From contig DIUJ01000068.1 of NCBI GenBank assembly GCA_002422315.1, forward strand, positions 30,882-94,881: a stretch of DNA of 64,000 nt, given 5' to 3'. This document shows positions 18 to 25,518 of this stretch, in pieces. The position numbers and the translations under genes are program-made. This stretch comes from Bacteroidetes bacterium UBA6161. GTDB lineage: Bacteria; Bacteroidota; Bacteroidia; NS11-12g; UBA955. Below the pieces are notes generated by a model. The model ran no database searches. It saw only the letters and a list, made by a program, of their open reading frames with translations, and was not told the origin of the DNA. Each line of letters starts with the position of its first letter. Position 1 is the stretch's first letter.

Positions 18-359
18 GTGCTCTTTCATCATTTTCCCCATTTAGACAAAAAAGCAGCTAAAAAGAGAGAATCTAGGCAGTTTACTATGTTTGACAAGCA
101 GGTAGAAGCTAAACTAAATTGGAAATTAGAAACAATAAGTTTAATTGAGCTTGGAGCAGCACTTTCAGAAGTAAATGCTTTTGGAAGTAAAACCACTAGA
201 AAAGAGATTTGGGAGGCATTGTCAGTGGCCTTTAATGTGAATTTAGAAAGACCAGAAAGTGCCCTTAGCCAATTAAAGCACCGAAAAATAAATCCAACAC
301 GTTTTCTCGATACCCTCAGATATTCAATGATTAAGCTTATTGATAAGAGCCTAGACTAA
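18..359 (+). CDS. hypothetical protein
   Basis: Intact 113-aa ORF directly upstream of the Xis-like HTH gene. No recognisable motif. Confidence 0.35.
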   Translation: MLFHHFPHLDKKAAKKRESRQFTMFDKQVEAKLNWKLETISLIELGAALSEVNAFGSKTTRKEIWEALSVAFNVNLERPESALSQLKHRKINPTRFLDTLRYSMIKLIDKSLD

Positions 360-447
360 AATAAATCGTTAATGAGTCATTAGTGAGTCATTAATTCATT
401 TTTTCGGCAACCCATAGTCTTGCAATCACAAAATAATTGAAAAACGT

Positions 448-756
448 ATGGAAATTATCACAATGGAAAGCAATGCCTACAAGCTCCTGATTCAGAAGCT
501 CGACGAGGTACATGCAGAACTTAAAAAGCTACAAGACCCTGCCAAGGAATTGTCTCGGGAATGGGTAGATGCCTATGATGTTATGAATATGCTGCATATA
601 AGCAGACGTACATTAAGCAAGTACCTGCAATCTGGAAAACTACAGTATTCCAAAATTCAGAACAAAAACTACTTTAGGTTGAAGGACATCGAGGAGTTTT
701 TGATGCATAACCACCGTTCACGTGCTCGTATTAATCAAAATCATCATGGGGCTTAA
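448..756 (+). CDS. helix-turn-helix DNA-binding protein, excisionase/MerR-like (mobile-element Xis-like)
   Basis: 102 aa. The central segment 'DVMNMLHISRRTLSKYLQSGKLQYSKI' is a classic HTH. Position upstream of a primase is typical of Bacteroidetes integrative/mobilizable elements. Confidence 0.55.
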   Translation: MEIITMESNAYKLLIQKLDEVHAELKKLQDPAKELSREWVDAYDVMNMLHISRRTLSKYLQSGKLQYSKIQNKNYFRLKDIEEFLMHNHRSRARINQNHHGA

Positions 757-2827
757 CAAAGAAGAAATATTGCATGCAACAGACCGAGGACTAAAGGTAT
801 TTACTTACTTTCTAAGGTCCAATTATCCTGGCATAAACAAGCCTTTCAAAAATCCTTTTTATGAGGATACCAAAGCTGCTTGCCATGTATATTTTGAAAA
901 AACCAGTAACCAGTATCGCTTTATAGATTTTGGAGACAGTTCCTACAACTGTGATTGCTTTGGTTTTGTGGCTTTGGTATTCAATCTGCAATGCAGCAAT
1001 GCTGAACATTTTTTGCAGGTTATGGAAATTATAGACCGTGAATTAGTGTTAGGTCTGGCAAACAACCACGATAAAATCAGAGAAATTACCAAGCAATTTC
1101 CGGAAGTAAAAGTGGCTTCTGAAATAGAGTCCTTAACTATTGCCGATATGAGAAACAACGTTTCTAAAAAATTCATACCTCCCATGTTTAAGGATTATTC
1201 TCAAACCGAAATTAATTTTTGGGGAATGTATGGCATAGATATGCAAACCCTAAAGAAATACAATGTGGTTTCTTTGCAGCGCTTTTATGGAACAAACAAG
1301 GATGGAAAAGAATACCAAATAGAAAGTGCAGTAGACGAGCCTATGTTTGGGTATCTTGGTAAACGCTTTTTAAAAGTGTATAGACCTCGCTCCAACAATC
1401 GCTTTTATTATTCCGGTGATTTGCACGAAGGCTATTGTTTTGGCTTGAAACAATTGCCATTAAGAGGCGATATTTTATTCATTACCGGAGGAGAAAAGGA
1501 TGTATTGAGTTTGGCTGCAAGGGGATTTAATGCTATTTGCTTTAACTCCGAAACCGTTACTATTCCTAAGAACCTGGTTAGGCGTTTGTCTTTTCGTTTC
1601 AAACATATTGTGCTGATGTACGACAAAGATGAAACAGGCTGCAAGGCAATGGAAAAACAGGTGAACCAACTCAAAGAGTTTGATGTAAAAATGCTGCTAT
1701 TGCCACTTAAAGGAACGCCTCAACAAAAGGATATTAGTGACTTTTTTAAAATAGGACATACTGCCCAGGATTTAATGAAATTATTTCGTGATTTATTGGA
1801 TGTACTGTATGAAGAAACCATGAGTTTGCTGCGAAGCTTTGAGGTGGACTATGACAAGGCACCGGCTGTACCCGAAGCAGTAATAGCTATAAACGAAGTG
1901 CCAATTGGATCTGCGGGTAACCTTATGGCAATTACAGGCCCCGAAGGCAGTGGCAAATCGAATTATTTGGGCGCTGTTTTGGCAGGAACCATGGTTGCGG
2001 AAGGAACAGAAGTAGATACTCTAGGAACAGAAATAGCTAGAAATACTACAGGCAAATCTGTGTTGTATTATGATACGGAACAATCCGAAGAGCAACTTTT
2101 TAAAAACTTACGTCAAATTGTAAGACGTTCGGGAGCATCGAGACCACCTTCCTGGTTCAAAACCTATGGTTTGGTGGGGATGGGAAGAAAAGACCGTTTG
2201 GTAAGCATTCTTCACTCCATGGATAGGTTTTATTATGAACATGGAGGCATTCACCTTGTAGTGATAGATGGTATAGCAGATTTGATAGATGGGGTAAACG
2301 ATGAAGAAAAGTCTGTAGCGCTTATAGACGAGTTGTTTCGGCTTGCCGGTATTTACAAAACGTGTATTTTGTGTGTATTACATTTAAGCCCAAGCGGCTA
2401 TAAGCTTAGGGGGCATTTGGGTTCAGAGATACAACGTAAGGCTGCCGGGATATTGTGTATAGAAAAGGAGGAGGACAAAACCCAATCCCTTGTGAAAGCT
2501 TTAAAAGTAAGAGACGGAAGTCCGTTGGATGTACCTCAAATAATAATGGCTTGGGACGATACACAAAAATTCCATGTATTTGTAGGCGAAAAAGACAAAG
2601 CTCGGCCACAAGAACGCAAGATTGAAGAGCTATCCGACATTGCACGTCATATATTTGAGCGAGAGGAAAGCCTAAACTACATGAAAATCATCTATGAGTT
2701 ACAAGAGCGACTTCATGTTAAAGAAAGGCAAGCCAAAAACTACCTTAAATTTATGCGTGACAACCACATTATCGAAGCTTTGCCAGGGGAAACCAATGTG
2801 TACAAACTGAAAATCCCACCCTTTTAA
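722..2827 (+). CDS. primase-helicase: Cys-cluster zinc-binding region + Toprim + C-terminal P-loop (RepA/DnaB-like) ATPase
   Basis: Cys cluster 'CHVYF...NCDCFGF'. Toprim-like 'ILFITGGEKDVLSLAARGFNAICFNSE'. Walker A 'ITGPEGSGKSNYLG' and Walker B 'HLVVIDGIADLIDG'. The true start is probably the internal Met (MGLNKEE, ~746). Confidence 0.65.
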   Translation: MLVLIKIIMGLNKEEILHATDRGLKVFTYFLRSNYPGINKPFKNPFYEDTKAACHVYFEKTSNQYRFIDFGDSSYNCDCFGFVALVFNLQCSNAEHFLQVMEIIDRELVLGLANNHDKIREITKQFPEVKVASEIESLTIADMRNNVSKKFIPPMFKDYSQTEINFWGMYGIDMQTLKKYNVVSLQRFYGTNKDGKEYQIESAVDEPMFGYLGKRFLKVYRPRSNNRFYYSGDLHEGYCFGLKQLPLRGDILFITGGEKDVLSLAARGFNAICFNSETVTIPKNLVRRLSFRFKHIVLMYDKDETGCKAMEKQVNQLKEFDVKMLLLPLKGTPQQKDISDFFKIGHTAQDLMKLFRDLLDVLYEETMSLLRSFEVDYDKAPAVPEAVIAINEVPIGSAGNLMAITGPEGSGKSNYLGAVLAGTMVAEGTEVDTLGTEIARNTTGKSVLYYDTEQSEEQLFKNLRQIVRRSGASRPPSWFKTYGLVGMGRKDRLVSILHSMDRFYYEHGGIHLVVIDGIADLIDGVNDEEKSVALIDELFRLAGIYKTCILCVLHLSPSGYKLRGHLGSEIQRKAAGILCIEKEEDKTQSLVKALKVRDGSPLDVPQIIMAWDDTQKFHVFVGEKDKARPQERKIEELSDIARHIFEREESLNYMKIIYELQERLHVKERQAKNYLKFMRDNHIIEALPGETNVYKLKIPPF

Positions 2828-3312: not shown

Positions 3313-4878
3313 ATGAAACAGAAAAAAGAAGTTAAAGAAAAAGCAATTGAAGTAACCCTTTGGGAAGCTGCAAATAAATTGAGAGGAAGCGTAGAACCAG
3401 CCGAATACAAACACGTTGTATTGGGCCTGATTTTCTTAAAATTTGCAAGCGACAAATTTGAAGAACACCGATCCAAACTCATTGCCGAAGGCAAAGAAAA
3501 ATACATTGAAATGGCAGAGTTCTACAACATGAGCAATGTGTTTTTCTTAGAAGAAATATCCCGTTGGAGCTACATTGTAAAAAAGGCCCGTCAAAATGAT
3601 ATTGCTTTAATCATTGACACTGCACTTCACACAATTGAGAAAGACAATAAATCATTGAAAGGTGCATTGCCCGACAACTATTTTTCACGTTTGGGCTTAG
3701 ATAAAACCAAATTAGCTTCGTTGATTAGTGAAATTGATAGCATCAACACTTTAAAAGACAAAGAACAAGATTTGGTTGGACGTGTTTATGAGTATTTTTT
3801 GAAAAAGTTCGCAATTGCGGAAGGAAAAGGAAAAGGAGAATTTTATACCCCAAAAACGATTGTAAACCTCATTGCTGAAATGATTGAACCGTACAAGGGA
3901 ATCATTTATGACCCTGCTTGTGGTTCAGGTGGTATGTTTGTGCAGTCCATCAAGTTTATTGAAGCGCACCAAGGAAATACCAAAAACATTGCAATTTACG
4001 GACAAGAATACACTAAAACAACCTACAAACTGGCTAAGATGAACTTGGCCATTCGTGGCATATCTGCTAACCTTGGTGAAAAAGATGCCGATACTTTTGC
4101 AGACGACCAACACAAAGATTTAAAAGCCGATTACATCATGGCAAATCCTCCCTTTAATCAAAAAGATTGGAGGGGTGAAAATGAATTGATTGACGACCCA
4201 CGTTGGAGAGGTTATGATGTTCCGCCAAAAAGCAATGCGAATTATGGTTGGATTCTGAACATGGTTTCCAAACTTTCTGACAATGGTGTAGCAGGATTTA
4301 TATTGGCTAACGGTGCATTGAGTGGTGGTGGTGAAGAGTATAAAATTCGTAGAAAACTCATTGAGAATAATTTGGTAGAAGCCATTGTGATTATTCCCCG
4401 AAACACCTTTTATACCACAGATATAAGTGTTACACTTTGGATTCTGAACAAAAACAAAAAAGCAAGAACAGTTGAAATAAACGGTAAACAAAAAAACTAT
4501 CGCGACCGTGAAAAAGAAATCCTGTTTATGGATTTAAGGCGTTGGGGTACAGAATACGAAAAGCAATTCATTGAGCTTCTACCTGAAGACATTGAAAAAG
4601 TGGCTGACAATTACCACAACTGGCAACAAGTAGATTATAAAACAACCTACAAGGATGTACCAGAGTATTGCTACTCGGCTCATTTTAACCAAATACAAGA
4701 AAACGACTTTTCATTAGTGCCAAGTAAATACATTGAATTTGTTGACCGTGATAGCGGCATTGATTTTGATTCTGAAATGAAACGCATACAAAAAGATTTT
4801 AAAACCCTTTTGAAAGAGGAAAAAGAGTCACAAGAACAATTGATTAACGCTTTTAAAGTACTAGGCTATGAACTATAA
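3313..4878 (+). CDS. hsdM: Type I restriction-modification system M subunit (N6-adenine DNA methyltransferase)
   Basis: N-terminal HsdM_N-like region. 'DPACGSGGMF' SAM-binding motif and 'IMANPPFNQ' (NPPF, motif IV). Overlaps hsdS by 11 nt. Confidence 0.9.
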   Translation: MKQKKEVKEKAIEVTLWEAANKLRGSVEPAEYKHVVLGLIFLKFASDKFEEHRSKLIAEGKEKYIEMAEFYNMSNVFFLEEISRWSYIVKKARQNDIALIIDTALHTIEKDNKSLKGALPDNYFSRLGLDKTKLASLISEIDSINTLKDKEQDLVGRVYEYFLKKFAIAEGKGKGEFYTPKTIVNLIAEMIEPYKGIIYDPACGSGGMFVQSIKFIEAHQGNTKNIAIYGQEYTKTTYKLAKMNLAIRGISANLGEKDADTFADDQHKDLKADYIMANPPFNQKDWRGENELIDDPRWRGYDVPPKSNANYGWILNMVSKLSDNGVAGFILANGALSGGGEEYKIRRKLIENNLVEAIVIIPRNTFYTTDISVTLWILNKNKKARTVEINGKQKNYRDREKEILFMDLRRWGTEYEKQFIELLPEDIEKVADNYHNWQQVDYKTTYKDVPEYCYSAHFNQIQENDFSLVPSKYIEFVDRDSGIDFDSEMKRIQKDFKTLLKEEKESQEQLINAFKVLGYEL

Positions 4879-5989
4879 GCGTATAGGCGACTACATACAT
4901 TTAGTGGACAACCGAAATAAAGATTTAGCGGTTTCACTGCTAAGAGGTGTTTCAACAACAAAACAGTTAATTGAGTCTGTTGCGAATATGTCAGGAGTTA
5001 GTTTGCACAATTACAAGGTTGTTGGAAATCGGCAGTTTGTATATGTGTCTGACACATCAAGACGAGGAGATAAAATTGGTGTTGCACTGAATACTGGCGA
5101 ACCTTGCGTAGTTTCAAGTATTTACACAGTGTTTGAAACTGATGAAAATTATTTATTGCCTGAGTATTTGTTCATTTGGTTCAATCGTTCAGAATTTGAC
5201 CGATACACAAGATTTCATTCGTGGGGCAGTGCAAGAGAAACTTTTGATTGGGCTGATATGTGTGAAGTAAAGATTCCTATCCCAGCCATTGACGAACAAC
5301 GAAAATTTGTAGCCCTCTACAACGGTTTATTGACCAACCAAAAAGTGTATCAAAATAGCTTGGATGATTTGCAGTTGATTTGTGACACCTACATTGAAAA
5401 TCTAATAAAAATCGAAGAGCCGAAAACACTTGGAGATTATATTGAGCAATCGGATGAAAGGAATAATGATTTGAAAATTGATAACCTTATAGGAATAAGC
5501 GTGAATAAGGTTTTTATGGAAACCAAATCTAACAAAGATAGACTCGACTTGTCAAATTATAAAATTGTTCGTCCGAGAGAGTTAGGATATGTCTCGGTAA
5601 CCTCAAGAAATGGAGAGAAAATTTCAATAGCAATTTTAGATGGTGAAGCAGGTCTTGTTTCAAGTACTTATACAGTGTTTAGAGTTAAAGACACTTCATT
5701 TTTATTACCTGAATATTTGTTTTTGTTTTTTAAGAGAACTGAATTTGACCGTTACGCTAGATTTAACTCTTGGGGCAGTGCTAGAGAAACATTTGATTGG
5801 GTTGATATGTGTAATGTGAAATTACCCATTCCCGACATCAAAGTACAAGAAGCCATTGTTACCATTTACCATACCTTAGAAACTCGTAAACGGATCAATG
5901 AGCAATTAAAAAACACCATTAAACCACTTTGTCCTGTGTTGATGAGGGGTGTTGTGGGGAGTGTGAAACTTGAAACTGTAAATTCCTAA
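4868..5989 (+). CDS. hsdS: Type I restriction-modification system S (specificity) subunit
   Basis: Two target-recognition halves, each ending in a conserved repeat: 'FDRYTRFHSWGSARETFDWADMCEVKIPIP' and 'FDRYARFNSWGSARETFDWVDMCNVKLPIP'. Confidence 0.9.
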   Translation: MNYKRIGDYIHLVDNRNKDLAVSLLRGVSTTKQLIESVANMSGVSLHNYKVVGNRQFVYVSDTSRRGDKIGVALNTGEPCVVSSIYTVFETDENYLLPEYLFIWFNRSEFDRYTRFHSWGSARETFDWADMCEVKIPIPAIDEQRKFVALYNGLLTNQKVYQNSLDDLQLICDTYIENLIKIEEPKTLGDYIEQSDERNNDLKIDNLIGISVNKVFMETKSNKDRLDLSNYKIVRPRELGYVSVTSRNGEKISIAILDGEAGLVSSTYTVFRVKDTSFLLPEYLFLFFKRTEFDRYARFNSWGSARETFDWVDMCNVKLPIPDIKVQEAIVTIYHTLETRKRINEQLKNTIKPLCPVLMRGVVGSVKLETVNS

Positions 5990-8202
5990 TGATTACATCC
6001 ATAAACATAAAGAATGTAGCAACCTATGACCCAGTGAATGGGGTTGAAATAGATGGTTTAAAAAAAATAAACTTTATCTATGGGGCTAATGGATGTGGTA
6101 AAACAACTTTATCAAACTTTTTGCTGTATCCTGGTGATACGAAATTTGCTAATTGTGTTTTAAACTGGGAGAATCAAACTCCACTCAATACTTTAGTTTA
6201 CAACAAAGAGTTTAGAGAACAGAACTTTGGCAAAGGTAAATTGAATGGAGTATTTACACTTGGACAGGCTACAAAAGAGGAAATTAAGGTCATTGAAGAA
6301 AAAACAGATCAACTAAAAACGATAAAAGATGATGGGCAAAAAAAGCGTGAAACACTAAACGTTCAAAAAAAGAAAAGAGAGGATTTAGAAAAAGAATTTA
6401 CTGAAAGTTGTTGGAAGAAAATCTATAAAAAGTATGATCAAGAATTTAAGGAAGCCTTTGTTGGTTCAATGAGATCTGGAGAGTTATTCAAAAATAGGTT
6501 ACTTCAAGAATTTGAGAATAACTCTGCTACTCTAATAACTTTAGAAGAGCTAAGAGAAAAGGCGAAAACAATTTTTGGAGAAGTTCCACAAAATATATTA
6601 TCCATAAGCGAAATTAATTATGACAGAATAATTGAAATCGAAGGTAATACAATTTGGGCAAAAATTATTGTTGGGAAAGCTGATGTAGATATTGCCAAAT
6701 TAATTCAAAAATTGAATATAACCGATTGGGTCAACCAAGGAAGAACTTATATACAAGAAGAGGTTGAAACTTGCCCATTTTGCCAACAAAAAACAATTAC
6801 AGATGATTTCAAAAATCAATTAGAAAGCTTTTTTGATGAAACTTATTTAACAGATATAAAATCACTTAAAGAATTAAAACAAGAATACAATTCATTGACT
6901 CAAAACATTATCAATGAGCTAAACGAAATTGAAACAAACCAAAAGAACTTTACAGGCTCTAAATTGAATATAGATAAGTTTTCAGCTTATCTAAAAACAT
7001 TAATAAGTCAGATTACGACCAATAGTGAATTTTTAAACAACAAATTAAAAGAACCAAGCAGAAGTATTGAATTAATATCACTCAACGAACAACTTGACTT
7101 GATAAATGATTTAATAAAAATTGCCAATGCAGAAATCAAAAAACACAACGATATAGTACTCAATTTCAATACTGAAAAAAGTACATTGATACAATCAATA
7201 TGGAAATTCATTATAGAAGAATTTAGAAACGAAATTACAAAGTATAACACTGATAAAAACGGGCTAGACTCTGGAATTTTGGCATTACAAACTCAATTAA
7301 CTACTAAGCTCACTGAACACGGTACGTTAAAAGCTGAAATCCAAAATTTAAGCAAAAACGTTACAAGTATTCAGCCAACTGTGGATGAAATCAATAGACT
7401 TTTGAAATCCTATGGTTTTCTAAACTTTGAAATTGTACCCACAGCGGAAAATGGATTTTATCAAATTCAACGTGAAGATGGTGAAATTGCTGAAGACACT
7501 CTAAGTGAAGGTGAAATTACGTTTATTACTTTTTTGTATTATTTGCAACGTGCTAAAGGAGGTGAAACAGAAGAATCGGTTAATGAAGAAAGAATCTTAG
7601 TTATTGATGACCCCATTTCTAGTTTAGATAGTAATGTGTTGTTTGTAGTAAGCACATTGATCAAGGAAATAATCAAAACTGTAAAATCAGAGACGGGAAA
7701 TATCAAACAGATTATTCTTCTTACCCACAATGTTTATTTTCATAAAGAAGTTTCTTACGAAGGATTGAACAGAAAAGGTGAGAAATCTCAATTTTGGATT
7801 TTACGTAAGAATAACAAAGTTTCTACAGTCCATTATTATGCTGATAAAAATCCAATTCAATCATCTTATGAACTACTCTGGCGAGAAATCAAGGAATGGG
7901 AAAACAATTCAGGTATAACCATTCAAAATACATTAAGAAGAATACTTGAAAACTATTTCAGCATTTTGGGAAGTAAACGAGATGATGTTTTAATCAATAA
8001 ATTTTCAAATCAAGAAGAAAGAGAAATATGCAGGTCTTTATTGAGTTGGGCAAACGAAGGTTCTCATACGTTACCAGATGATTTGTTTATTGAAGCTCCA
8101 GACGGTACGATAACTAAGTATTTAGATGTGTTTAAGAATATTTTTAATCACACAGAAAATATTGGTCATTATAATATGATGATGGAATTAGAAAGCGATT
8201 GA
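5989..8202 (+). CDS. Rad50/SMC-like ABC ATPase with CxxC zinc hook (AAA_13-type), RloC/PrrC-like putative anticodon nuclease
   Basis: Walker A 'GANGCGKTT'. 'CPFCQQ' sits ahead of a long coiled-coil insert. Signature-like 'LSEGE', Walker B/D-loop 'ILVIDDPISSLD' and H-loop 'LLTHN'. C-terminal 'R-x3-E ... H' (TLRRILEN...EGSHTL) resembles the PrrC ACNase triad. Start overlaps the hsdS stop (TAATG). Confidence 0.55.
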   Translation: MITSINIKNVATYDPVNGVEIDGLKKINFIYGANGCGKTTLSNFLLYPGDTKFANCVLNWENQTPLNTLVYNKEFREQNFGKGKLNGVFTLGQATKEEIKVIEEKTDQLKTIKDDGQKKRETLNVQKKKREDLEKEFTESCWKKIYKKYDQEFKEAFVGSMRSGELFKNRLLQEFENNSATLITLEELREKAKTIFGEVPQNILSISEINYDRIIEIEGNTIWAKIIVGKADVDIAKLIQKLNITDWVNQGRTYIQEEVETCPFCQQKTITDDFKNQLESFFDETYLTDIKSLKELKQEYNSLTQNIINELNEIETNQKNFTGSKLNIDKFSAYLKTLISQITTNSEFLNNKLKEPSRSIELISLNEQLDLINDLIKIANAEIKKHNDIVLNFNTEKSTLIQSIWKFIIEEFRNEITKYNTDKNGLDSGILALQTQLTTKLTEHGTLKAEIQNLSKNVTSIQPTVDEINRLLKSYGFLNFEIVPTAENGFYQIQREDGEIAEDTLSEGEITFITFLYYLQRAKGGETEESVNEERILVIDDPISSLDSNVLFVVSTLIKEIIKTVKSETGNIKQIILLTHNVYFHKEVSYEGLNRKGEKSQFWILRKNNKVSTVHYYADKNPIQSSYELLWREIKEWENNSGITIQNTLRRILENYFSILGSKRDDVLINKFSNQEEREICRSLLSWANEGSHTLPDDLFIEAPDGTITKYLDVFKNIFNHTENIGHYNMMMELESD

Positions 8203-8239
8203 GCCCAACACAATATTGAATAATTAGAATAAAAGGATT

Positions 8240-9109
8240 ATGAATAACAAAGACATGATATTTAACATTTACTACGTGAACTTCCCAAAAGTTTACGAAA
8301 TAAAAATGATGCTCAACAACATGATTCTTTCTGGACAACAAATAGAGAAAGGTAAAAGTGTTGAGGGAGAAGCATACTTAAAAACAAAATTGGGCTTCAA
8401 TATCATGGACATTTTTAAACTTGGTGATGCGGAAGCAGGTGGAAACATTAAGGGTGCTGGTTCTAAAAAAGTTTTAGAAACCTTTGAAATAAAAACAACT
8501 AAATCAGTAATTCTAAACGAAATTGTTGAAAAGAGTAATAAGATTTCGGATTTAAAAAATATCAAAGAAGGAGAATTGATTCAAATTAATAATGTAAATC
8601 TATCGCTTGAAAATGAAGCGGAACTCAGAACAGTAAAATTGTTTACAAGCGGTTCTTTTAAAGGTCTTTCATTACCAGATACAAATGGTCTTGATATTAA
8701 CAACCTTTTCAATTCCATGTTTAAAGATTATGCTTATAAAATGAAAGGTTCATTAGACGGTTCAGAGGATGATTTGCTTGTGAAAATACCTTTCACTTTT
8801 GAGAACGAGTTTGAAAGTTCTTATAGTGTTGACGACCTCTTTATTGGTAAAGTCTCAATAATAGGTTTATACAAGGGAAAAATAAAAATTGACCAACTCC
8901 GTAATTCATTTGAATTTTATAAAGATTTGGGCGAATTAACTCAACTTCAAAATACTGGTGTAACAAGTAAAAATGAAGAAATTCAAGACAGCCAGTATAA
9001 AAAGGAAGATGTAAAGGATAATTTTTTTGCCAGTTCAAAATTTAGCGATAAAGAATTCCATTATATAGATCTTTTAGCCATTGTTCAAAATATTAGCATT
9101 CCTGAATAA
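8240..9109 (+). CDS. hypothetical protein (unknown function, inside the hsd operon)
   Basis: Intact 289-aa ORF, 38 nt after the RloC-like gene and 9 nt before the AAA+ gene. No recognisable motif. Confidence 0.5.
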   Translation: MNNKDMIFNIYYVNFPKVYEIKMMLNNMILSGQQIEKGKSVEGEAYLKTKLGFNIMDIFKLGDAEAGGNIKGAGSKKVLETFEIKTTKSVILNEIVEKSNKISDLKNIKEGELIQINNVNLSLENEAELRTVKLFTSGSFKGLSLPDTNGLDINNLFNSMFKDYAYKMKGSLDGSEDDLLVKIPFTFENEFESSYSVDDLFIGKVSIIGLYKGKIKIDQLRNSFEFYKDLGELTQLQNTGVTSKNEEIQDSQYKKEDVKDNFFASSKFSDKEFHYIDLLAIVQNISIPE

Positions 9110-9118
9110 TATAAAATT

Positions 9119-10318
9119 ATGGAAAAGGAGTTAACATATTTTGAGCGAATAGATTTCAACGAGTTCAGAGAGCTAAAAGAATCTGAAGGTTTTCTTATTG
9201 AAAGCATTTCAGATTATATAAAAGACAAAAATTTAATCGAACAAATTGATCCGCTCAATGTAATAATTGATATAACCGCATTATCTGGTTATTCAGCATC
9301 AATGCAAGCCTTTTCTGAAGAATTATTAATACCCTTTGACGATTCTATATTATTTATTGCTGATATTAAACACGAAGAAACCTTCAACTACGAACTAAGA
9401 TATTGCTTTACAAAAATTGATTACTGGAAATCTAAAAAAGACAAATCAGACGATAAAGTTGAGAATACAAATAAATCAAAAAGTAAGCACAAGAAAATAA
9501 CTGACCTATCAGAGGATGAGTTAGGGGTCTTCTTTCAAGAATTTAGAAAAAGTCTTTATGGACATGAAAAATTCAAAGATGATTTTTTTGATTTAACCAA
9601 GACTTTTAGGGTTTTCAATGGAATTAGGGAGCATAAAATATTATCACTTTTTTTACTTGGGGAATCAGGCGTTGGAAAAACGGAAGTTGCTAACTCTATT
9701 TACAAATGCTTGGGCGGAATGAAGAAACTTGCTAAAGTTAATTTCGGGAATTACAGTAGTGAGTTTTCATTAAGTTCACTTATAGGAAGTGCGCGAGGGT
9801 ATATCGGAAGTGATGATGGAGAAATATTTATCAGAGTTAGAGATACTGATATAGGAGTAATATTAATTGATGAATTTGAGAAGTCAAATGCAACTCTTTT
9901 TAACTACTTTTTAGATGTATTGGAAAGCGGTAAACTAGTCAGCTCTTTAGCTGAAGAAATTGACTTAGATGGCTTCATAATAGTTTTCACTTCAAATATT
10001 AGCAAAGAGGACTTTTCAAATAAGATTTCTCCAGAGCTAAGATCAAGGTTCGACTACAAATGTCAATTTACCTTACTCTATAATGAGGACAAGAAAAAAT
10101 ATGTTGAATTTAGGGTGAATAGTATTGTTAGAAAGGTAAATGAGAAATATAAAATACAATTAGAAGAGAACTTACATGAACGTTTTTTAACTCAAATCAA
10201 TGTTTCTGATTACAATAACATGAGAGATTTAAATAAAAAAATCAAAACAGTATTTGTTGATTATGTTACAAGCGAGAAATTAGCATTGCATGAACTCGAA
10301 AAAGAAATAAGCGAATAA
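9119..10318 (+). CDS. ClpA/ClpB D2-like (AAA_2-type) AAA+ ATPase with unknown ~170-aa N-terminal domain
   Basis: Walker A 'LLGESGVGKTEVANS'. 'VILIDEFEKSNATLFNYFLDVLESGKL' parallels ClpB D2 '[27 protein letters not shown]', and 'IIVFTSN' parallels the ClpB sensor region. Stop overlaps the hsdR start (TAATG). Confidence 0.6.
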   Translation: MEKELTYFERIDFNEFRELKESEGFLIESISDYIKDKNLIEQIDPLNVIIDITALSGYSASMQAFSEELLIPFDDSILFIADIKHEETFNYELRYCFTKIDYWKSKKDKSDDKVENTNKSKSKHKKITDLSEDELGVFFQEFRKSLYGHEKFKDDFFDLTKTFRVFNGIREHKILSLFLLGESGVGKTEVANSIYKCLGGMKKLAKVNFGNYSSEFSLSSLIGSARGYIGSDDGEIFIRVRDTDIGVILIDEFEKSNATLFNYFLDVLESGKLVSSLAEEIDLDGFIIVFTSNISKEDFSNKISPELRSRFDYKCQFTLLYNEDKKKYVEFRVNSIVRKVNEKYKIQLEENLHERFLTQINVSDYNNMRDLNKKIKTVFVDYVTSEKLALHELEKEISE

Positions 10319-13300
10319 TGAAATTCACAGAAGAAAAATTAGAAAAGGCATTTGCTGAGTTACTGGGACAAGAAGGATTTCCGCACTACACAGGCATTAC
10401 AATTTCTCGTAATCCAGATGAAGTATTGATTGAAGAAGATTTACAAAACTTCTTATTGTCGCAATATGCCCATCAAGGTATCACGATCAATGAAACCAAA
10501 TCGATTATTCTTCAACTCAAATCCCTTTCTGCTACTGATTTATACGAAAGCAACAAAACCTTTCTTAACATGCTTTCTGACGGTTTTATTTTGAAAAGAG
10601 AAGACCGCAACCAAAAAGACATTTACATACAATTAATTGATTATACAGGATTAAACAAACACCGTCAACCTGACGAAGAACAATTAATTTCAGTAGTAGC
10701 AGAAGGCAAAGGGGAATACGGAAAAGACAATAACATTTACAAATTTGTTAATCAACTAGAAATTGTTGGAACGGAAAAACGTATTCCTGATGGCATTGTG
10801 TACATCAATGGTTTGCCTTTGGTGGTGTTTGAGTTTAAAAGTGCCATACGTGAAGAAGCTGCCATTTTTGATGCATTCAAACAATTAACGGTTCGTTACC
10901 GCAGAGATATTCCCGAACTGTTTAAATACAACGCTTTTTGTGTGATAAGTGATGGCGTAAACAACAAAGCAGGTTCTTTTTTTGCTCCCTATGAGTTTTT
11001 CTACGCTTGGCGTAGAGTAGCAGGTTTGGCAAAAGATGTGGACGGTATAGACAGTATGTTTACCCTTATTCAAGGTATGTTTGATAAAAACCGTTTACGT
11101 GATATTATCCGAAACTTCATTTACATACCCGACAGCTCAAAGAAAAACGAAAAAATTGTGTGTCGCTATCCACAATATTATGCAGCAAGAGCCTTGTATG
11201 AGAATATAAAACATACACAAAAACCTGAAGGAGACGGTAAAGGAGGAACTTACTTTGGTGCCACAGGTTGCGGAAAAAGTTTTACCATGCTTTACCTCAC
11301 ACGTTTGTTAATGAAAAGCGAATACTTTGAAAGCCCAACCATAGTTTTAATAACAGATAGAACAGACCTTGACGACCAACTTTCGGGGCAATTCACCAAT
11401 GCCAAAAACTTTATTGGAGATAGTACAATCATAAGTGTAGAAAGTAGAGCGCATTTAAGAGAATTGGTACAAGGCAGACAAAGTGGCGGGGTTTTCCTTA
11501 CAACGATTCATAAGTTTACAGAAGATACCGAATTACTTACCGAAAGAACCAACGTAATTTGTATTTCAGATGAGGCACACAGAAGCCAAACCAACCTTGA
11601 CCAAAAAGTAAAAGTCACCGAAAAAGGTGTTACCAAATCTTATGGTTTTGCCAAATATTTACACGATTCTTTACCCAACGCAACCTTTGTTGGTTTCACA
11701 GGAACACCAATAGACGCAACCCTTGATGTATTTGGTAAAGTGGTAGATGCTTATACTATGACAGAGTCCGTAAAAGATGAAATTACTGTTCGGATAGTTT
11801 ATGAAGGTCGTGCAGCAAAAGTGGCGTTAAAAAACAGTGAATTAGAGAAAATCGAAAAATATTACGAAGAAGCAGCAGAATTAGGAGCAAACGATTATCA
11901 AATAGACAAAAGTAAACTCGAAACAGCCAATATGTACACGATTTTGGGTGACCCTGACCGTTTACGTGCCGTAGCAGAAGATTTTGTGAACCATTATGAA
12001 AAGCGAATTTCAGAAGGAGCAACTGTAAAAGGAAAAGCACTATTTGTAAGCAGTAGTCGTGAAATCGCTTATGAATTGTACAAAAATATAATAGCATTGA
12101 GACCTGAATGGGCTGAAATTAGAGAAGCAGAAGAAGGTATTGAATTAACCGATAAAGATAAAAGGGAATTAAAACCGATTGAGCGTGTAAAAATGGTAAT
12201 GACCAGAGGAAAAGACGACCCAAAAGAACTTTGGGATATGTTAGGCACTTCTGACGACCGAAAAGAACTCGACCGCCAATTTAAAAATCCGAAATCGAAT
12301 TTCAAAATAGCCATTGTAGTAGATATGTGGCTCACTGGTTTTGATGTACCTTTCTTAGATAGCATATACATTGATAAACCGATACAACAACACAATTTAA
12401 TTCAAACCATTTCAAGAGTAAACCGAAAATTTGAAGGCAAAAACAAAGGTTTGGTAGTGGATTATATCGGCATCAAAAAACAAATGAATTTGGCACTTGC
12501 CAAATACAACAAAGGTGACGAAGACAACTTTGAAGACATTACACAATCTTTAGTAGTAGTTAAGGACCATTTGGATTTATTAGCCAAATTGATGCACACA
12601 TTTGACAATACAAAGTATTTCAAAGGAAGTACCATAGAACAATTAAACACCTTAAACCTTAGTGCTGAATTTGTGCAAAAAACCAAAGATTCAGAAACCC
12701 GTTTTATGGGCTTAGTAAAGCGACTAAAAGCCGCTTATGATATTTGTGCAGGAAGTGAAAAACTAACCCAAGCAGAAAGAGACTACACACATTTCTATTT
12801 GGCTATTCGTTCCATTATTTTCAAATTAACCAAAGGTAATGCACCCGACACGGCACAAATGAACGCAAGAGTTCGGGAAATGATAAAAGAAGCCTTAGAA
12901 AGTGATGGTGTGGAAGAAATATTCAAACTTGGAGACGAAAACGAAACCGAACAAGATATTTTTGATGAAGATTATTTAGCCAAAATCAACAAAATCAAAT
13001 TACCCAACACAAAAATCAAATTACTTCAACAGCTATTGGCGAAAGTAATTGGAGAAATCAAAAAGGTAAACAAAGTAAAAGGAATTGATTTTTCAAAAAA
13101 GATGCAAGCCTTAGTTGAACGCTACAACCAGCGAGATGAGAATGATATACTCAGAAGCGAAGTATATGAGGAAATGGCAGATGCCTTAACTGAATTAATC
13201 TGGGAGGTTCACAAAGAATTTTCAGCAGGAGACGCATTAGGAATTGACTTTGAAGAAAAGGCCTTTTATGACATTCTAAAAGAACTTTGTATCAAATACG

Positions 13301-13530
13301 ACTTCAATTACCCAGACGACAAAATGATTGAATTGGCAAAAGCCGTGAAAGACTTAGTAGATGGTCAAGCCAAATTCCCTGATTGGAACAAACGTGACGA
13401 CATCAAATCAGCTTTGAAAGTTGGACTCATTCTCTTGCTTGACGAATTTGGCTATCCACCTGTAGAGAGAGACGAAGTATATGTGGAGATTTTTGAACAA
13501 GCAGAAAATTTTAAAAAGAATAGGGGGTAG
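10318..13530 (+). CDS. hsdR: Type I restriction enzyme R subunit (DEAD/DEAH helicase-nuclease)
   Basis: N-terminal 'IPDGIVYINGLPLVVFEFKS' (nuclease/HsdR_N). Motif I 'GATGCGKS', DEAH 'ISDEAHRSQ' and motif VI 'QTISRVNR'. 1070 aa. Confidence 0.9.
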   Translation: MKFTEEKLEKAFAELLGQEGFPHYTGITISRNPDEVLIEEDLQNFLLSQYAHQGITINETKSIILQLKSLSATDLYESNKTFLNMLSDGFILKREDRNQKDIYIQLIDYTGLNKHRQPDEEQLISVVAEGKGEYGKDNNIYKFVNQLEIVGTEKRIPDGIVYINGLPLVVFEFKSAIREEAAIFDAFKQLTVRYRRDIPELFKYNAFCVISDGVNNKAGSFFAPYEFFYAWRRVAGLAKDVDGIDSMFTLIQGMFDKNRLRDIIRNFIYIPDSSKKNEKIVCRYPQYYAARALYENIKHTQKPEGDGKGGTYFGATGCGKSFTMLYLTRLLMKSEYFESPTIVLITDRTDLDDQLSGQFTNAKNFIGDSTIISVESRAHLRELVQGRQSGGVFLTTIHKFTEDTELLTERTNVICISDEAHRSQTNLDQKVKVTEKGVTKSYGFAKYLHDSLPNATFVGFTGTPIDATLDVFGKVVDAYTMTESVKDEITVRIVYEGRAAKVALKNSELEKIEKYYEEAAELGANDYQIDKSKLETANMYTILGDPDRLRAVAEDFVNHYEKRISEGATVKGKALFVSSSREIAYELYKNIIALRPEWAEIREAEEGIELTDKDKRELKPIERVKMVMTRGKDDPKELWDMLGTSDDRKELDRQFKNPKSNFKIAIVVDMWLTGFDVPFLDSIYIDKPIQQHNLIQTISRVNRKFEGKNKGLVVDYIGIKKQMNLALAKYNKGDEDNFEDITQSLVVVKDHLDLLAKLMHTFDNTKYFKGSTIEQLNTLNLSAEFVQKTKDSETRFMGLVKRLKAAYDICAGSEKLTQAERDYTHFYLAIRSIIFKLTKGNAPDTAQMNARVREMIKEALESDGVEEIFKLGDENETEQDIFDEDYLAKINKIKLPNTKIKLLQQLLAKVIGEIKKVNKVKGIDFSKKMQALVERYNQRDENDILRSEVYEEMADALTELIWEVHKEFSAGDALGIDFEEKAFYDILKELCIKYDFNYPDDKMIELAKAVKDLVDGQAKFPDWNKRDDIKSALKVGLILLLDEFGYPPVERDEVYVEIFEQAENFKKNRG

Positions 13531-13531
13531 T

Positions 13532-13897
13532 ATGGAAGAAATAGAAAAGAGTGAAAGCAATAAGTTAATCATTATAGGAAATGGTTTTGACTTGTCGTTA
13601 AGAATTAAAACAAGTTATAAAGACTTTTTACTTTGGTTGTTGCAGAAGTATATAAAGAAGACTTATGAAAAGAAGCATGCAACTCATCCAAAATATAAGA
13701 TAATTAATCAATTGTCTAAAGAAGAAGAAAGATTAAAAGTGAACCTCCTTTCAGAAAACGGAGCTAAAACAGTATTAGTGCAGATGGGAAACCACAATGA
13801 AATGACAACACTGCCTCAATCAATATTAGGTAAGACAGATGTTCCATTTTATGGGAATAGTCAAATGTTGTTACAGAAATCGGTGTTGGGAGAGTAA
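13532..13897 (+). CDS. AbiH-like abortive-infection protein, N-terminal fragment (possibly truncated)
   Basis: Starts 'MEEIEKSESNKLIIIGNGFDLSLRIKTSYKDFL', matching the conserved N-terminus of the AbiH family (LIIGNGFDLxHGLxTxYxDF). Only ~122 aa against ~300+ for full AbiH. The track ORF start (13481) overlaps hsdR, so the ATG at 13532 is preferred. Confidence 0.4.
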   Translation: MEEIEKSESNKLIIIGNGFDLSLRIKTSYKDFLLWLLQKYIKKTYEKKHATHPKYKIINQLSKEEERLKVNLLSENGAKTVLVQMGNHNEMTTLPQSILGKTDVPFYGNSQMLLQKSVLGE

Positions 13898-13908: not shown

Positions 13909-16344
13909 ATGGCAAAGAAAAAACATTTAAAATTATTAAGTGATAAACAACTTGAAGAAGTTGCCAAAATAGAGTTTAAATATGGGTTTGGTGGTAATGA
14001 AGACGATGAAGAAGAAAATACACAACCTAATTATTATAGACAAGCATCCAATCTTCGTGTAAGTATCGAAAACTTTTCAATTGAACAAGAGCAAAAATAT
14101 GCTCGGAAGGATAGAAGTCTTGAAATACCTGCGGATGTTGATTATATTCAAATTAACTTTGTGTCACAATTCGTAATTAGTAAATACTTTAATGAATATT
14201 ACAAGAAATTTGGACTTGAAGCAATAAATTTTTCCAATTTCGGGAAAACGGGTCTATTTGCAATTATCGAAAGAGATTTATTTCAGACATATCTTAATGA
14301 AATAAATAACTTTATTCAATTTGGGCTCAACCTTAATCCAGAGAGCAAATACGATAATTATGTTACTTATGTCAATGGTTTCAAGCTGTTAACAGCTAAA
14401 GACATTATACGCTTTAAAGTAGATGAAATCGGCAAAGTAGTTTGTCTCTCATTAGTTGAATTGCCCTTAGACTTAAAGTTACAATCACTCTTAATTGATT
14501 CATTAATTGCTTTTCTTGAAAGTAAAAATATATCATATTATTTTGACAAAACTGTAAACAGGATTGAACTATTAGATATACCCTTTGAGCAAGTACAGTT
14601 GATTGCGGAGAATTTCGACATCATCCAAAATGCCACCTGCTCTTTATCAACCATAGTAAGGCCATCTGAATTCAACTTTGTTAAAAGAGAATACGGTTTC
14701 AATATTTCAAATGCAGATGAAAATTTGCCAGTGATCGGAATTATTGATACAGGTATTAGTATGGATACACCCCTTAAATCCATTACAATTCAAGATGCCT
14801 CATTTAGTTTGGAAGGCAATCCTTTAATAGATGTTTCAGGCTATAAAAGAGAAGGTCACGGCACAGCAGTAGCGGCATTGGCTGCTTTAGGAAGGCTTAA
14901 TCATTTAAATAAGTTTCAAGGTGAAATAAGAGCAGATGCAAAACTTCTATCAATAAAATTGTTCGAAAGTGGCAATGGCTATTTATCCGAAACCCAAGTG
15001 GTAAAAATGCTGTATGATGCGAAAAGTAAGTACCCTCATATAAAGTTGTTCGTCTTAACTACTTGTTATGATAAGTTCAAAGCTAAAAACGAACCCTTTA
15101 GTTCTTACACTTATGAGTTAGACAAATTTGCTCATTCAACAGATAGTTTAATATTTATTTGCACTGCAAACAATAGAAATGCTATAAATGAGAATACTGA
15201 TTATGACTTGGCTTATTTCAATTCAGTACACACCAATCTTTCAACGCCAGCGGATAGTCTTAATAACGTTACTGTTGGTGCAGCCGCAGAGAATTTAAAC
15301 GGTGATACTTTTTATGGTATATCAAGTGGCAGAGAATACCCAACCCTATACTCACGAAAAGGGCATATAGACTTGGCAGCTGTTTTTCCTCGCAATAAGT
15401 CCAATAAAAATTATTTCAAACCAGATGTAATTGATTGCGGTGGCGATTTAGGTTTTTACAATCCTTCAGCTATTGATTACATTGATAATTCTGCGATGGC
15501 TGTTTTATCAGCACGCCCGGAATTGGGCTACATTTTAGAAACTGGCACAAGCTTGTCAGCTCCTTTAACCGCAAATTTAGCTGCAAAAATTTTAAAAGAA
15601 TATCCTCATATAAATGCTCAAACAGTTAAAGCACTTATTATAAATGGTGCATCTTTAAATAATATTCAATTTCCAAAACAGGTTAGTCATTTACTTAATG
15701 TTACAGCCGGTAACGGTTTTGTTGATGTTGAAGAAAGTTTGTTTTCCAATGAAAATAGAGCCACATTGATTTTGGAAGATGAGATTTCCAATACTGATCT
15801 AAAGATTTACCCAATAAACTTCCCTAAGTATTTAGTTGAACATGATTTAGGTCGTAAGAAAGGATTGGTAAAAATTACTGCAACATTGTGTTTTAGTTTC
15901 GAACCAATATTAAATAACCAACTATCATACAATCCTATTCATATGGCATTTAGTTTTTTCAAGAACCATAGTGCTGATGAAATTAATGCGAAAAATGATG
16001 ATTTTAATTCGAAACTAAGGTCTTCACTATCTTGGTCACAAAACGGTAGAAACGTTTCCAAACCAATTCCGTTTTCTAATTCTCAGAAAATCAATTTTAC
16101 TATTGATTTGAACCATTTAGTTACAGAAAATCAAGTGTTGAAATTAGCCGTTCATTGCAAGGTTTCAACTCAAATTGTTGGTGGTTTACCAGCAGGTTAT
16201 CCAAAGCAATTTCCATTTTCAATGGCTATAACTATAGAAGAAAATACTAAAAAGAAATCAGGCAAACTTTATGATGAACTGCGTGCAATAAACAACTTAG
16301 AAGTAATTAGTGATATTGAACTGGACAGTTCTATTGATGTATAA
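13909..16344 (+). CDS. subtilisin-like (S8) serine peptidase domain protein with unknown N- and C-terminal domains
   Basis: Catalytic triad in subtilase order: D 'IGIIDTGIS', H 'HGTAVAALAAL', S 'GTSLSAPLTA'. 811 aa. No signal peptide is apparent, so it is probably cytoplasmic. Confidence 0.7.
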   Translation: MAKKKHLKLLSDKQLEEVAKIEFKYGFGGNEDDEEENTQPNYYRQASNLRVSIENFSIEQEQKYARKDRSLEIPADVDYIQINFVSQFVISKYFNEYYKKFGLEAINFSNFGKTGLFAIIERDLFQTYLNEINNFIQFGLNLNPESKYDNYVTYVNGFKLLTAKDIIRFKVDEIGKVVCLSLVELPLDLKLQSLLIDSLIAFLESKNISYYFDKTVNRIELLDIPFEQVQLIAENFDIIQNATCSLSTIVRPSEFNFVKREYGFNISNADENLPVIGIIDTGISMDTPLKSITIQDASFSLEGNPLIDVSGYKREGHGTAVAALAALGRLNHLNKFQGEIRADAKLLSIKLFESGNGYLSETQVVKMLYDAKSKYPHIKLFVLTTCYDKFKAKNEPFSSYTYELDKFAHSTDSLIFICTANNRNAINENTDYDLAYFNSVHTNLSTPADSLNNVTVGAAAENLNGDTFYGISSGREYPTLYSRKGHIDLAAVFPRNKSNKNYFKPDVIDCGGDLGFYNPSAIDYIDNSAMAVLSARPELGYILETGTSLSAPLTANLAAKILKEYPHINAQTVKALIINGASLNNIQFPKQVSHLLNVTAGNGFVDVEESLFSNENRATLILEDEISNTDLKIYPINFPKYLVEHDLGRKKGLVKITATLCFSFEPILNNQLSYNPIHMAFSFFKNHSADEINAKNDDFNSKLRSSLSWSQNGRNVSKPIPFSNSQKINFTIDLNHLVTENQVLKLAVHCKVSTQIVGGLPAGYPKQFPFSMAITIEENTKKKSGKLYDELRAINNLEVISDIELDSSIDV

Positions 16345-16347
16345 ATC

Positions 16348-17373
16348 TTACTTATTGAGTGCTTGTTTTTCAGCTTCAACAAGTTCCTTCCATATTTGAG
16401 TATCAATTTTGCCACTCAATTTTTTTTCAGGTTCTTTTGCTGCAAATAAGCTTCTTTTAATGGCAGTAATCAATGTTTTTTGAATGCTGTAGTAGGAAAG
16501 ACCCAGGCATTCTTTTATTATTTTGTTCGCAATAATTTTTTTGTCAAATGAGAATACACCATTCTTCAGGGTTAATGCAATTAACTCTTGTATCTCCTTT
16601 TCATTCGGCAATTTAAATTCAATGATATTATCAAATCTTCTAATCAAGGCTTCATCAAGCATATCTTTTTGATTTGTAGCAGCTATAACGATACTACTTT
16701 GCGGTAGGTAATCAAAAAGTTGAAGAATTGTGTTTACAACTCGTTTCATCTCTCCGTGATCTTGGCTATAATCTCTTATTTTTCCAAGACTATCAAATTC
16801 ATCTAAAAATATGATACAATCTTCTATCGCAGCTTTCTTGAAGATTTTAGATAGGTTTTTGCTTGTTTCACCTAATTTCGAAGAAACAATAGCCCCGAGA
16901 TTAATAACAACCATCATTTTCTTTAACTCTCCTGCAATAACATAAGAAGCCAGTGTTTTTCCGCAACCGGAAGGTCCGTACATTAAAACTTTATTGGCTA
17001 CAGGCAACTCAAACCTTCTAAGGATTTCAATCTTTTGGTGTTCTTCAATGAAAAATTTTAGCTCGTTTTTTACACTTCCCTCTGCAATAATATTTTCAAG
17101 TGTATAGTCCGATGTTACTTTCTCAAGAATTAATTCAGCAATTTCTCTGTCATCCAACTTCTGGTAATAATTGTCAGAGCCAACTTTGGTAAGCGTGTTT
17201 GTGCCTTGCTGTTTTATTGCATCTTTCAGTATAGATTGGAGCTGAATTGCAAAATTTAGTTTTTTAGTTTTCTTTGAATGTTCAATAAGTTCATTGAGTA
17301 CAGACAATAGCCTTTCCTGGTCATTTTCAAGACCGAATTTGGCTATATCTTTTATGTATTCAAACTGACTCAT
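16348..17373 (-). CDS. classical AAA ATPase (SRH-containing, FtsH/CDC48-clade-like)
   Basis: Walker A 'YGPSGCGKT', Walker B 'IIFLDEFDSL', and SRH with Arg fingers 'IAATNQKDMLDEALIRRFD'. Convergent with the S8 gene and 3 bp from it. Confidence 0.75.
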   Translation of the reverse strand: MSQFEYIKDIAKFGLENDQERLLSVLNELIEHSKKTKKLNFAIQLQSILKDAIKQQGTNTLTKVGSDNYYQKLDDREIAELILEKVTSDYTLENIIAEGSVKNELKFFIEEHQKIEILRRFELPVANKVLMYGPSGCGKTLASYVIAGELKKMMVVINLGAIVSSKLGETSKNLSKIFKKAAIEDCIIFLDEFDSLGKIRDYSQDHGEMKRVVNTILQLFDYLPQSSIVIAATNQKDMLDEALIRRFDNIIEFKLPNEKEIQELIALTLKNGVFSFDKKIIANKIIKECLGLSYYSIQKTLITAIKRSLFAAKEPEKKLSGKIDTQIWKELVEAEKQALNK

Positions 17374-20068: not shown

Positions 20069-20170
20069 AGTTAGCTTGTTTCAAAAGTAGTGAATATAAT
20101 TTAAAAAATAAACCATCTCCTATTCTTTCATTGAATAAGAGATGGTAAAAAATAGCATATAGTTGCCTTT

Positions 20171-22849: not shown

Positions 22850-22992
22850 AATGACTTTTATTTAGTTAAACTCAACTGTCTAACAAAGACAGTAATTAAA
22901 ATTTCAAATTGAGAACTTATACTCCCAATTTGCTTTGTAATTTTAGTAGCTATAAGAATTGCACGAACCAAAGAAATCATGCATTTTATAAA

Positions 22993-23340
22993 TTCGTTTT
23001 CATAGTCCTTTTTCGGACAGCGAACAATGTGGTAAATAGCTATATTATTAAAATGAGAACTAAAAAGGACAAAACAGCAAATTCTGCGGCAAGCATAATT
23101 GAATCTGCCATAATAGTAATGAACTCTACTGACTTGGTCGGTTGCCGAGCAGCTGTTCTGTCCTTCTCCATGGGGTCTTGAATAGCTAATTCAATTTCCT
23201 ATAGAGGCAAGTTTTTATAAGCTTATTTGCAATACAAATTACAGTTAATAAACATTAGATTACCAAACATATTGAATGAATAAAACAAATTTCAGGAAAT
23301 TCCCTGAGATAAACTCTCAGGAAATTTCCTGAATATTTTT
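22993..23340. repeat. direct repeat copy 1 (~345 bp) ending in a 40-bp hairpin + T-run
   Basis: About 95% identical to 28397-28740. Contains 'ttcaggaaattccctgag ataaact ctcaggaaatttcctgaa' followed by 'tatttttt'. Confidence 0.85.
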
Positions 23341-23751
23341 TAATTTAACTCCTGTTTTAAGGAGTATTTATATTTCATTTCATAGTAAAAAAATAAAAAC
23401 TATGACTCTGCCACTCACCTGTAATTGTAAAAATTGGACTGTAAAACAAAAAATAGTTCTTAATACTATTGGAATGGTTCAACATGATATTGTTTGATAT
23501 CATTCAGTTGTATTCTAAAACTTGAAGCAGAGAGTGGGTAAATTGATTAAACCTTTACCCAGGAAAATTAATTACTACATTATCAAATGGAAATCTTTAA
23601 TTTCCATTCTTTGTGTAGGGTTTAGCTTTTTGCAAAATTATTCCGCTACCTCATGTTGCAGGAATATTTACTCTATTTTTAAGGAATTTTGAGAAGTTTT
23701 TTCTCTCGTTCCTATTTCACAAGTTGTTAAAAGAAAAGTTAGCAAAGGGAG

Positions 23752-25494: not shown

Positions 25495-25518
25495 ATTACA
25501 AACAAAGATAGCATAAAA

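Follow-up and report, generated by a model that had tools for sequence, protein, structure and literature searches.

The stretch of DNA analyzed here (64,000 nt from contig DIUJ01000068.1 of Bacteroidetes bacterium UBA6161, GenBank assembly GCA_002422315.1, positions 30,882 to 94,881 of the forward strand; hereafter the window) carries two adjacent genes, A and B, within a type I restriction-modification (R-M) operon. Gene A encodes a protein of 289 residues, and gene B encodes a 399-residue AAA+ ATPase that resembles the second ring (D2) of the two-ring Hsp100/Clp proteins. A preliminary description of the locus, made from the sequence alone, had proposed the pair as a novel two-gene defense module, and its account of the layout proved accurate in coordinates and spacing, with the two open reading frames (ORFs) lying 9 nt apart on the same strand inside the hsd operon. 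The gene order is hsdM-hsdS-AAA_13-A-B-hsdR in one tightly packed operon, so that the pair sits between hsdS and hsdR. The hsdS stop codon overlaps the start of the AAA_13 gene at 5989, and the stop codon of B overlaps the start codon of hsdR (TAATG at 10318). Translation of A probably initiates at M6 (ATG 8255), because most homologs in alignment A1 begin with the sequence MIFNIYY found there. The positions of these and all other features are collected in Table 1.

The preliminary description had treated the two genes as a unit, and a survey of their co-occurrence bears this out. Scanning one genome per species gave 78 loci encoding A, most of them in Bacteroidota and the others in Clostridia and Bacilli (Bacillota), Mucispirillum and Lancefieldella. 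In 76 of these loci A is followed immediately by B on the same strand, and the intergenic distance is mostly between -8 and +18 nt. The 76 include two loci in which B has decayed beside an intact A, L070 and L060 (36-residue remnant), and locus L032 encodes A without B. Taken together with the 963 homologs of A that were found, this retention of the pair is far above chance. In Flavobacterium covae AL-02-36 (L039; CP067379.1, 8004-10028) the two proteins are fused in frame into a single protein of 674 residues with a junction of about 6 residues, a single Rosetta-stone hint that A and B may associate physically.

The position of the pair between hsd genes could mean that it modulates the flanking type I enzyme, for example by remodeling or recycling HsdR. 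The pair is indeed translationally coupled into the hsd operon in the window, and the hsdM-hsdS-...-A-B-...-hsdR layout occurs again in L011, L012 and L020. However, by tblastn, HsdM, HsdS and HsdR homologs flank the pair in these three of the 78 loci only, and the remaining loci, including four on plasmids, have unrelated neighbors. The rarity of embedding in hsd operons (about 3 loci out of 78) indicates that the pair is an autonomous module rather than an R-M accessory. Base composition points the same way: the G+C content is 0.29-0.31 over positions 6000-10000, which hold the AAA_13, A and B genes, versus 0.36-0.38 in hsdM and hsdR, as would fit the later insertion of one or more cassettes into the hsd operon. 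Defense genes of unrelated kinds, such as that for PrrC, are known to insert at type I hsd loci. The prr locus, in which PrrC is encoded within a type Ic hsd operon, resembles the window in carrying a defense cargo gene between hsd genes, and the AAA_13 gene of the window itself has a PrrC-like C-terminal region; however, the function of PrrC is tied to its R-M enzyme, whereas A and B mostly occur without any hsd genes. An accessory role for the pair is thus very unlikely, and neither of the two dismissals that the preliminary description had envisaged, an R-M accessory or a non-functional remnant, describes it.

The pair is a member of an already catalogued family and not a new system. Among the models of PADLOC-DB v2, A matches PDC-M37A (E = 6.6e-107, residues 6-287 on profile positions 3-274 of 277) and B matches PDC-M37B (E = 1.6e-147, residues 1-386 on profile positions 1-386 of 390). 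Both proteins therefore match end to end, and the genes are adjacent, in the expected order and on the same strand, with no structural difference from PDC-M37. The preliminary description had found no recognizable domain in A, which holds for the Pfam and NCBIfam models, none of which it matches, but not for those of PADLOC. Likewise, its assignment of the pair to defense is borne out by the PDC-M37 match and by homology to the Dodola system, but its claim that a stand-alone ClpB-D2-like protein would be new to defense did not survive: Dodola, composed of DolA and DolB, is already a tested system of this kind, and the pair itself is already listed as PDC-M37A/B.

Two later papers (PMC11514479; 10.1101/2024.10.22.618286) cite Millman et al. 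2022 for Dodola. The system consists of a DUF6414 protein, DolA, and a ClpB-like protein, DolB (PMC11514479; 10.1101/2024.10.22.618286). It protects against SPP1 (PMC11514479) and, at low copy number, is broadly active against streptococcal phages (10.1101/2024.10.22.618286). In a survey of the Bacillus cereus group, the gene pairs that PADLOC assigns to PDC-M37 were the very ones that DefenseFinder assigns to Dodola, KXI55849.1/KXI55850.1 being one of them (PMC11811056 and its supplement). Like Dodola, the window pair is a two-gene operon in which a protein of about 260-290 residues is followed by a single-ring ClpB-like AAA+ ATPase of about 375-400 residues. It differs from Dodola in its distribution, as the window branch is mainly found in Bacteroidota, whereas the tested Dodola systems come from Bacillota (Bacillus, Streptococcus).

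Homology to Dodola extends to both components. B matches DolB (E = 3.8e-28, residues 112-387 on profile positions 104-371 of 375), and its N-terminal 110 or so residues fall outside the alignment. For A, an exhaustive profile search yielded relatives forming 339 clusters at 50% identity, from which 90 diverse representatives were aligned (alignment A2). All 90 match PDC-M37A, 20 match the PADLOC DolA model (best E = 7e-9), and 1 matches Pfam DUF6414 (E = 1e-3). The DolA matches span positions 29-253 of 258 and include P0277 (9e-9), P0157 (4.9e-7), the A proteins of L077 (2e-6) and L079, and P0176. These proteins are clear relatives of window A (for P0157, E = 1e-48 with the A1 profile), and every partner ATPase tested matches DolB, at about 1e-29 to 1e-31. 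Thus, both PDC-M37 components are homologous to both Dodola components, and the two systems agree in protein sizes and gene order; these profile matches make a strong case that A is homologous to DolA at the family level. None of the 54 relatives returned for P0157 carries PF19952, the DUF6414 family.

Several observations weigh against this placement. The link between A and DolA is transitive rather than direct, as window A is too diverged to match DolA or DUF6414 at E ≤ 0.1. The 97 bits that B scores on DolB are only modestly above its 82 bits on housekeeping ClpA. PDC-M37 is a computational candidate, and we found no published experiment on this branch; the fusion in L039, moreover, could be a sequencing error. 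Nonetheless, we consider it likely that A and B constitute an anti-phage module of the Dodola family, PDC-M37 branch, carried as independent cargo between hsdS and hsdR, in which B is the proposed unfoldase and A its partner.

B has a single AAA_2 domain (Pfam, E = 1.7e-20, residues 173-330) and matches the NCBIfam ClpA, ClpB and ClpV models at 1e-21 to 1e-23, on the second ring each time, with residues 120-386 aligning to positions 433-718 of the ClpA model; in a search of PDB it matches ClpC D2 at 5.7e-21. No Clp_N domain, first ring (D1) or middle domain was found. The motifs quoted in the preliminary description are present and align with ClpC/ClpB D2, and its view of B as a stand-alone AAA+ protein of the ClpA/ClpB D2 type stands. 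The Walker B motif with the helix that follows reads VILIDEFEKSNATLFNYFLDVLESGKL, also in alignment with ClpC/ClpB D2. Like the D2 rings of class 1 Hsp100/Clp proteins (ClpA/B/C/V), B has Walker A, Walker B, sensor-1, Arg and sensor-2 motifs, a small domain, and a pore loop (GYIG) of the GYVG type. Across 70 B sequences from several phyla, the Walker A G-K-T, the Walker B D-E, the pore-loop G-Y, the sensor-1 T/N, both arginines of ELRSRF and the sensor-2 arginine are each conserved in 69 or all 70 of them. Conservation of this kind implies that B is a working ATPase whose pore threads substrate.

A second feature of the motor concerns proteolysis. In ClpA and ClpC, the stretch from sensor-1 to the Arg motif carries the ClpP-docking IGF/VGF loop. 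In B, this stretch is just 11 residues long (ISKEDFSNKIS, with FTSN before it and PELRSRFD after it), and the alignment with ClpC D2 shows no IGF, LGF or VGF tripeptide loop like that of the ClpP partners (ClpA/C/X/E). Canonical docking to ClpP is therefore closed to B, which would not be part of a protease but would work as an unfoldase or remodeler. B appears to work like the two-ring Hsp100/Clp proteins, but it is not a member of that family: it has a single ring, lacks the Clp N-domain, first ring, middle domain and ClpP-binding loop, and instead has its own N-terminal domain and an obligate partner with a predicted OB-like fold.

The preliminary description had also credited B with a unique N-terminus of 170 residues. 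The unique part is real but shorter, consisting of a domain of about 110 residues plus a charged linker, whereas residues ~136-170 form the lead-in helix that D2 rings normally have; LYGHEKFKDDF in B corresponds to the VIGQDEAV region of ClpB. A profile search of the N-terminal domain against PDB found no relative. This domain (about 100 residues) is tandem-duplicated in L002, L004 and L006 (Pedobacter, Sphingobacterium), where B reaches 514-518 residues, and the homologs with the duplication match PADLOC model PDLC04605 (518 positions). A domain that evolves fast and is sometimes duplicated would fit a role in specificity or recognition.

The nearest architectural analog of B is human CLPB/Skd3, which likewise has a stand-alone D2-type ring behind a non-Clp N-terminal domain (a substrate-binding ankyrin domain in Skd3) and needs no protease for its action. 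The match of B to the AAA domain of Skd3 is at about 1e-13 to 1e-14. We use this as a working analogy and not as a claim of membership: the N-terminal domains are unrelated, and Skd3 is a eukaryotic mitochondrial protein that lacks a partner encoded by a second gene. The AAA core of B also matches the second rings of ClpK and ClpG, at about 1e-17, and the pair is carried on plasmids and, in the window, on an ICE-like element (integrative and conjugative element). These observations would be consistent with a mobile-element disaggregase like plasmid ClpK/ClpG, with A as a co-factor, that serves stress tolerance rather than immunity. However, B lacks the first ring, N-domain and middle domain that disaggregases use, it is homologous to an experimentally validated defense system, and the pair has a patchy distribution, lying among defense genes in the window and beside methyltransferases elsewhere. 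We regard a stress-tolerance function as highly improbable.

The wider distribution of the pair can be described as follows. It occurs on four Bacillota plasmids (Listeria pLIS4, one plasmid from Halobacillus and two from Priestia), and a tblastn search of plasmids with P0157 returned only four PDC-M37-type pairs. Weak plasmid matches of B in Burkholderia (H2, H45) were rejected as full-length two-ring Clp proteins rather than DolB. A search of the collection of isolated phage genomes found no homolog of A, and IMG/VR yielded two contigs; the pair is thus rare in the latter set and not typically phage-borne. Among 132 immediate neighbors in other genomes, models for type I methyltransferase, type II methyltransferase, PglX and mad2 (R-M/BREX) were each matched by 5-10 proteins. 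Methyltransferases usually make up a fraction of a percent of genes, and the neighbor counts of the pair are far above that, in a comparison of plain counts per family.

An AlphaFold2 model of A with a pLDDT (predicted local distance difference test) of 66, which is usable, replaces an earlier model from a shallow alignment that was poor (pLDDT 57), and it predicts an OB-like fold for the conserved core with two flexible loops. Foldseek comparison of the model with PDB and BFVD gave no significant match, and a search of PDB sequences with the A-family profile found no relative. About 32 of the 90 A-family representatives have 1-4 predicted N-terminal transmembrane (TM) helices ahead of the conserved domain (for example P0168, P0178, P0220, P0240 and P0268), a form covered by PADLOC model PDLC04601 (374 positions). 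Conserved acidic and lysine residues had raised the idea that A is a PD-(D/E)xK-type nuclease, which we dropped, as no model or fold match supports it. One relative, P0121 (745 residues), has a 460-residue N-terminal region fused to a complete A domain (residues 460-742), and no Pfam family was recognized in this extra region.

The conserved motor of B, its lack of a ClpP loop, the constant association of the two genes and their kinship with a tested defense system together suggest that B most likely assembles as a hexamer that threads polypeptide through its central pore, and that A is most likely its dedicated partner, with which it forms a complex. The OB-like domain of A and the fast-evolving N-terminal domain of B may select or sense a target. 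The ATP-driven unfolding by B would then act either on a phage protein or on A, in the latter case turning on an effector function that in relatives whose A has TM helices may operate at the membrane. We tentatively prefer a model in which target selection by the two domains leads B to unfold or strip a phage protein, although our confidence in it is low. A more novel reading is unlikely, namely a proteolysis-independent "unfoldase immunity" in which an OB-fold sensor, A, recognizes a phage nucleic-acid or protein cue and sets B on an essential protein of the phage, which B would unfold or strip; membrane-anchored A relatives would in that case sense at the site of DNA entry. We know of no system in which an unfoldase-type mode of immunity has been demonstrated.

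Alternatively, A could be a latent toxic effector, either membrane-active or a nucleic-acid-binding OB protein, with B as its keeper or activator; the preliminary description, too, had suggested that the partner could be an effector that the unfoldase restrains or activates. Infection would then lead B to unfold or release A, causing cell death or arrest before phage release. N-terminal TM helices, present in about one-third of A subfamilies, are a typical trait of abortive-infection effectors, and the two long flexible segments of A are ones that a threading ATPase could grip. The tight gene coupling and the one A-B fusion would also fit, and Dodola appears among presumed abortive systems in reviews (PMC11514479). 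However, window A has no predicted TM helix, and neither the Pfam, NCBIfam and PADLOC models nor fold comparison detected a toxin, nuclease or pore-forming domain in A. Moreover, the occurrence of A alone in L032, and beside a decayed B in L060 and L070, suggests that A by itself is not strongly toxic. This is the main rival, and our confidence in it is about as low as in the preferred model of target unfolding, from which the data do not separate it.

The surroundings of the pair place it in a larger defense island. The 737-residue AAA_13 ATPase encoded directly upstream resembles ABC/SMC proteins and is a PADLOC single-gene candidate (PDC-S06); its C-terminal third (residues 462-725) matches the PrrC anticodon nuclease model (E = 7.6e-15), and in L004, too, this gene stands ahead of the A-B pair. 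A 138-residue ORF that overlaps the end of hsdR matches the AbiH N-terminus (residues 28-80) and the extreme C-terminus of BrxL (residues 86-135) and looks like a chimeric remnant. Directly 3' of hsdR lies a Gao_Iet system with convergent genes for IetS (subtilase, 811 residues) and IetA (AAA+, 341 residues). By the Pfam and PADLOC models, the A-B pair is thus placed between PDC-S06, Hsd and IetAS, and the island has at least four defense modules.

Upstream of hsdM are an RteC fragment, an HTH_17 (excisionase-like) protein and a 701-residue protein with Toprim and AAA_25 domains. Because these are typical of conjugative or mobilizable elements of Bacteroidota, the island is probably cargo of such an integrative, ICE-like element. 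Downstream, four large proteins with CHU_C or Por_Secre_tail sorting domains of the type IX secretion system (T9SS) mark the host as a T9SS-bearing member of Bacteroidota and probably also mark the end of the island.

Table 1. Features of the A-B pair and its surroundings in the window (positions count from the first nucleotide of the window).
Feature	Position	Strand	Basis or remark
Gene A, DolA-like partner (PADLOC PDC-M37A)	8240-9109	+	PDC-M37A, 6.6e-107
A, variable Gly-rich segment, residues 30-80	8327-8479	+	Predicted disordered; pLDDT <50; identity to window 0.37-0.45
A, conserved core, residues ~85-216	8492-8887	+	Predicted OB-like beta-barrel; motifs KTTKS, KDYxYK, IKIP, EFESSYSVDDLFIGKV and GLYKG most conserved
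A, second variable segment, acidic/polar, residues 240-266	8957-9037	+	Predicted disordered
A, conserved C-terminal strand, HYIDLLAIVQN	9059-9091	+	After second variable segment
Gene B, DolB-like single-ring Hsp100/Clp-D2-type AAA+ ATPase (PADLOC PDC-M37B)	9119-10318	+	PDC-M37B, 1.6e-147; DolB, 3.8e-28
B, N-terminal domain, residues 1-110	9119-9448	+	Family-specific, fast-evolving; 31% mean identity vs 76% in AAA core
B, AAA+ large domain	9524-10108	+	ClpC D2 alignment
B, Walker A, GESGVGKTE, residues 181-189	9659-9685	+	ClpC D2 alignment
B, pore loop, GSARGYIGSDDG (ClpC: GSPPGYVGYDEG)	9785-9820	+	ClpC D2 alignment
B, Walker B, VILIDEFEKS	9857-9886	+	ClpC D2 alignment
B, sensor-1, FTSN	9986-9997	+	ClpC D2 alignment
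B, Arg motif, PELRSRFD	10031-10054	+	ClpC D2 alignment
B, C-terminal small domain	10109-10315	+	ClpA model alignment through residue 386
B, sensor-2-like Arg, NMRDLNKKI	10217-10243	+	R369 kept in 69/70 sequences
RteC fragment, HTH_17 protein, Toprim + AAA_25 protein	18-2827	+	Upstream of hsdM
hsdM	3313-4878	+	5' part of type I R-M operon; context, outside module; translation
hsdS	4868-5989	+	5' part of type I R-M operon; context, outside module; translation
AAA_13 (ABC/SMC-like) ATPase, 737 residues	5989-8202	+	PDC-S06, 2.7e-274
hsdR	10318-13530	+	3' part of type I R-M operon; HSDR_N, SWI2_SNF2, ResIII and T1RH-like_C domains; context
138-residue ORF	13481-13897	+	AbiH and BrxL matches
Gao_Iet system	13909-17373	+ (IetS), - (IetA)	Directly 3' of hsdR
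Four large proteins with T9SS sorting domains	17648-28026	-	CHU_C or Por_Secre_tail

In summary, the A-B pair extends the Dodola family into Bacteroidota and adds to the clear cases in which a type I R-M operon has taken in defense cassettes unrelated to it. The pair is of value because no mechanism has been established for Dodola (PMC11514479; 10.1101/2024.10.26.620412; 10.1101/2024.10.22.618286) and the comparative features described here make Dodola-type immunity testable. The details that this analysis adds are the predicted OB-like core of the partner, its membrane-anchored subfamilies, an apparent natural A-B fusion, an intact motor with an invariant threading pore and no ClpP loop, and the fast-evolving N-terminal domain of the ATPase, and each offers a handle on immunity based on a stand-alone Clp-type motor.

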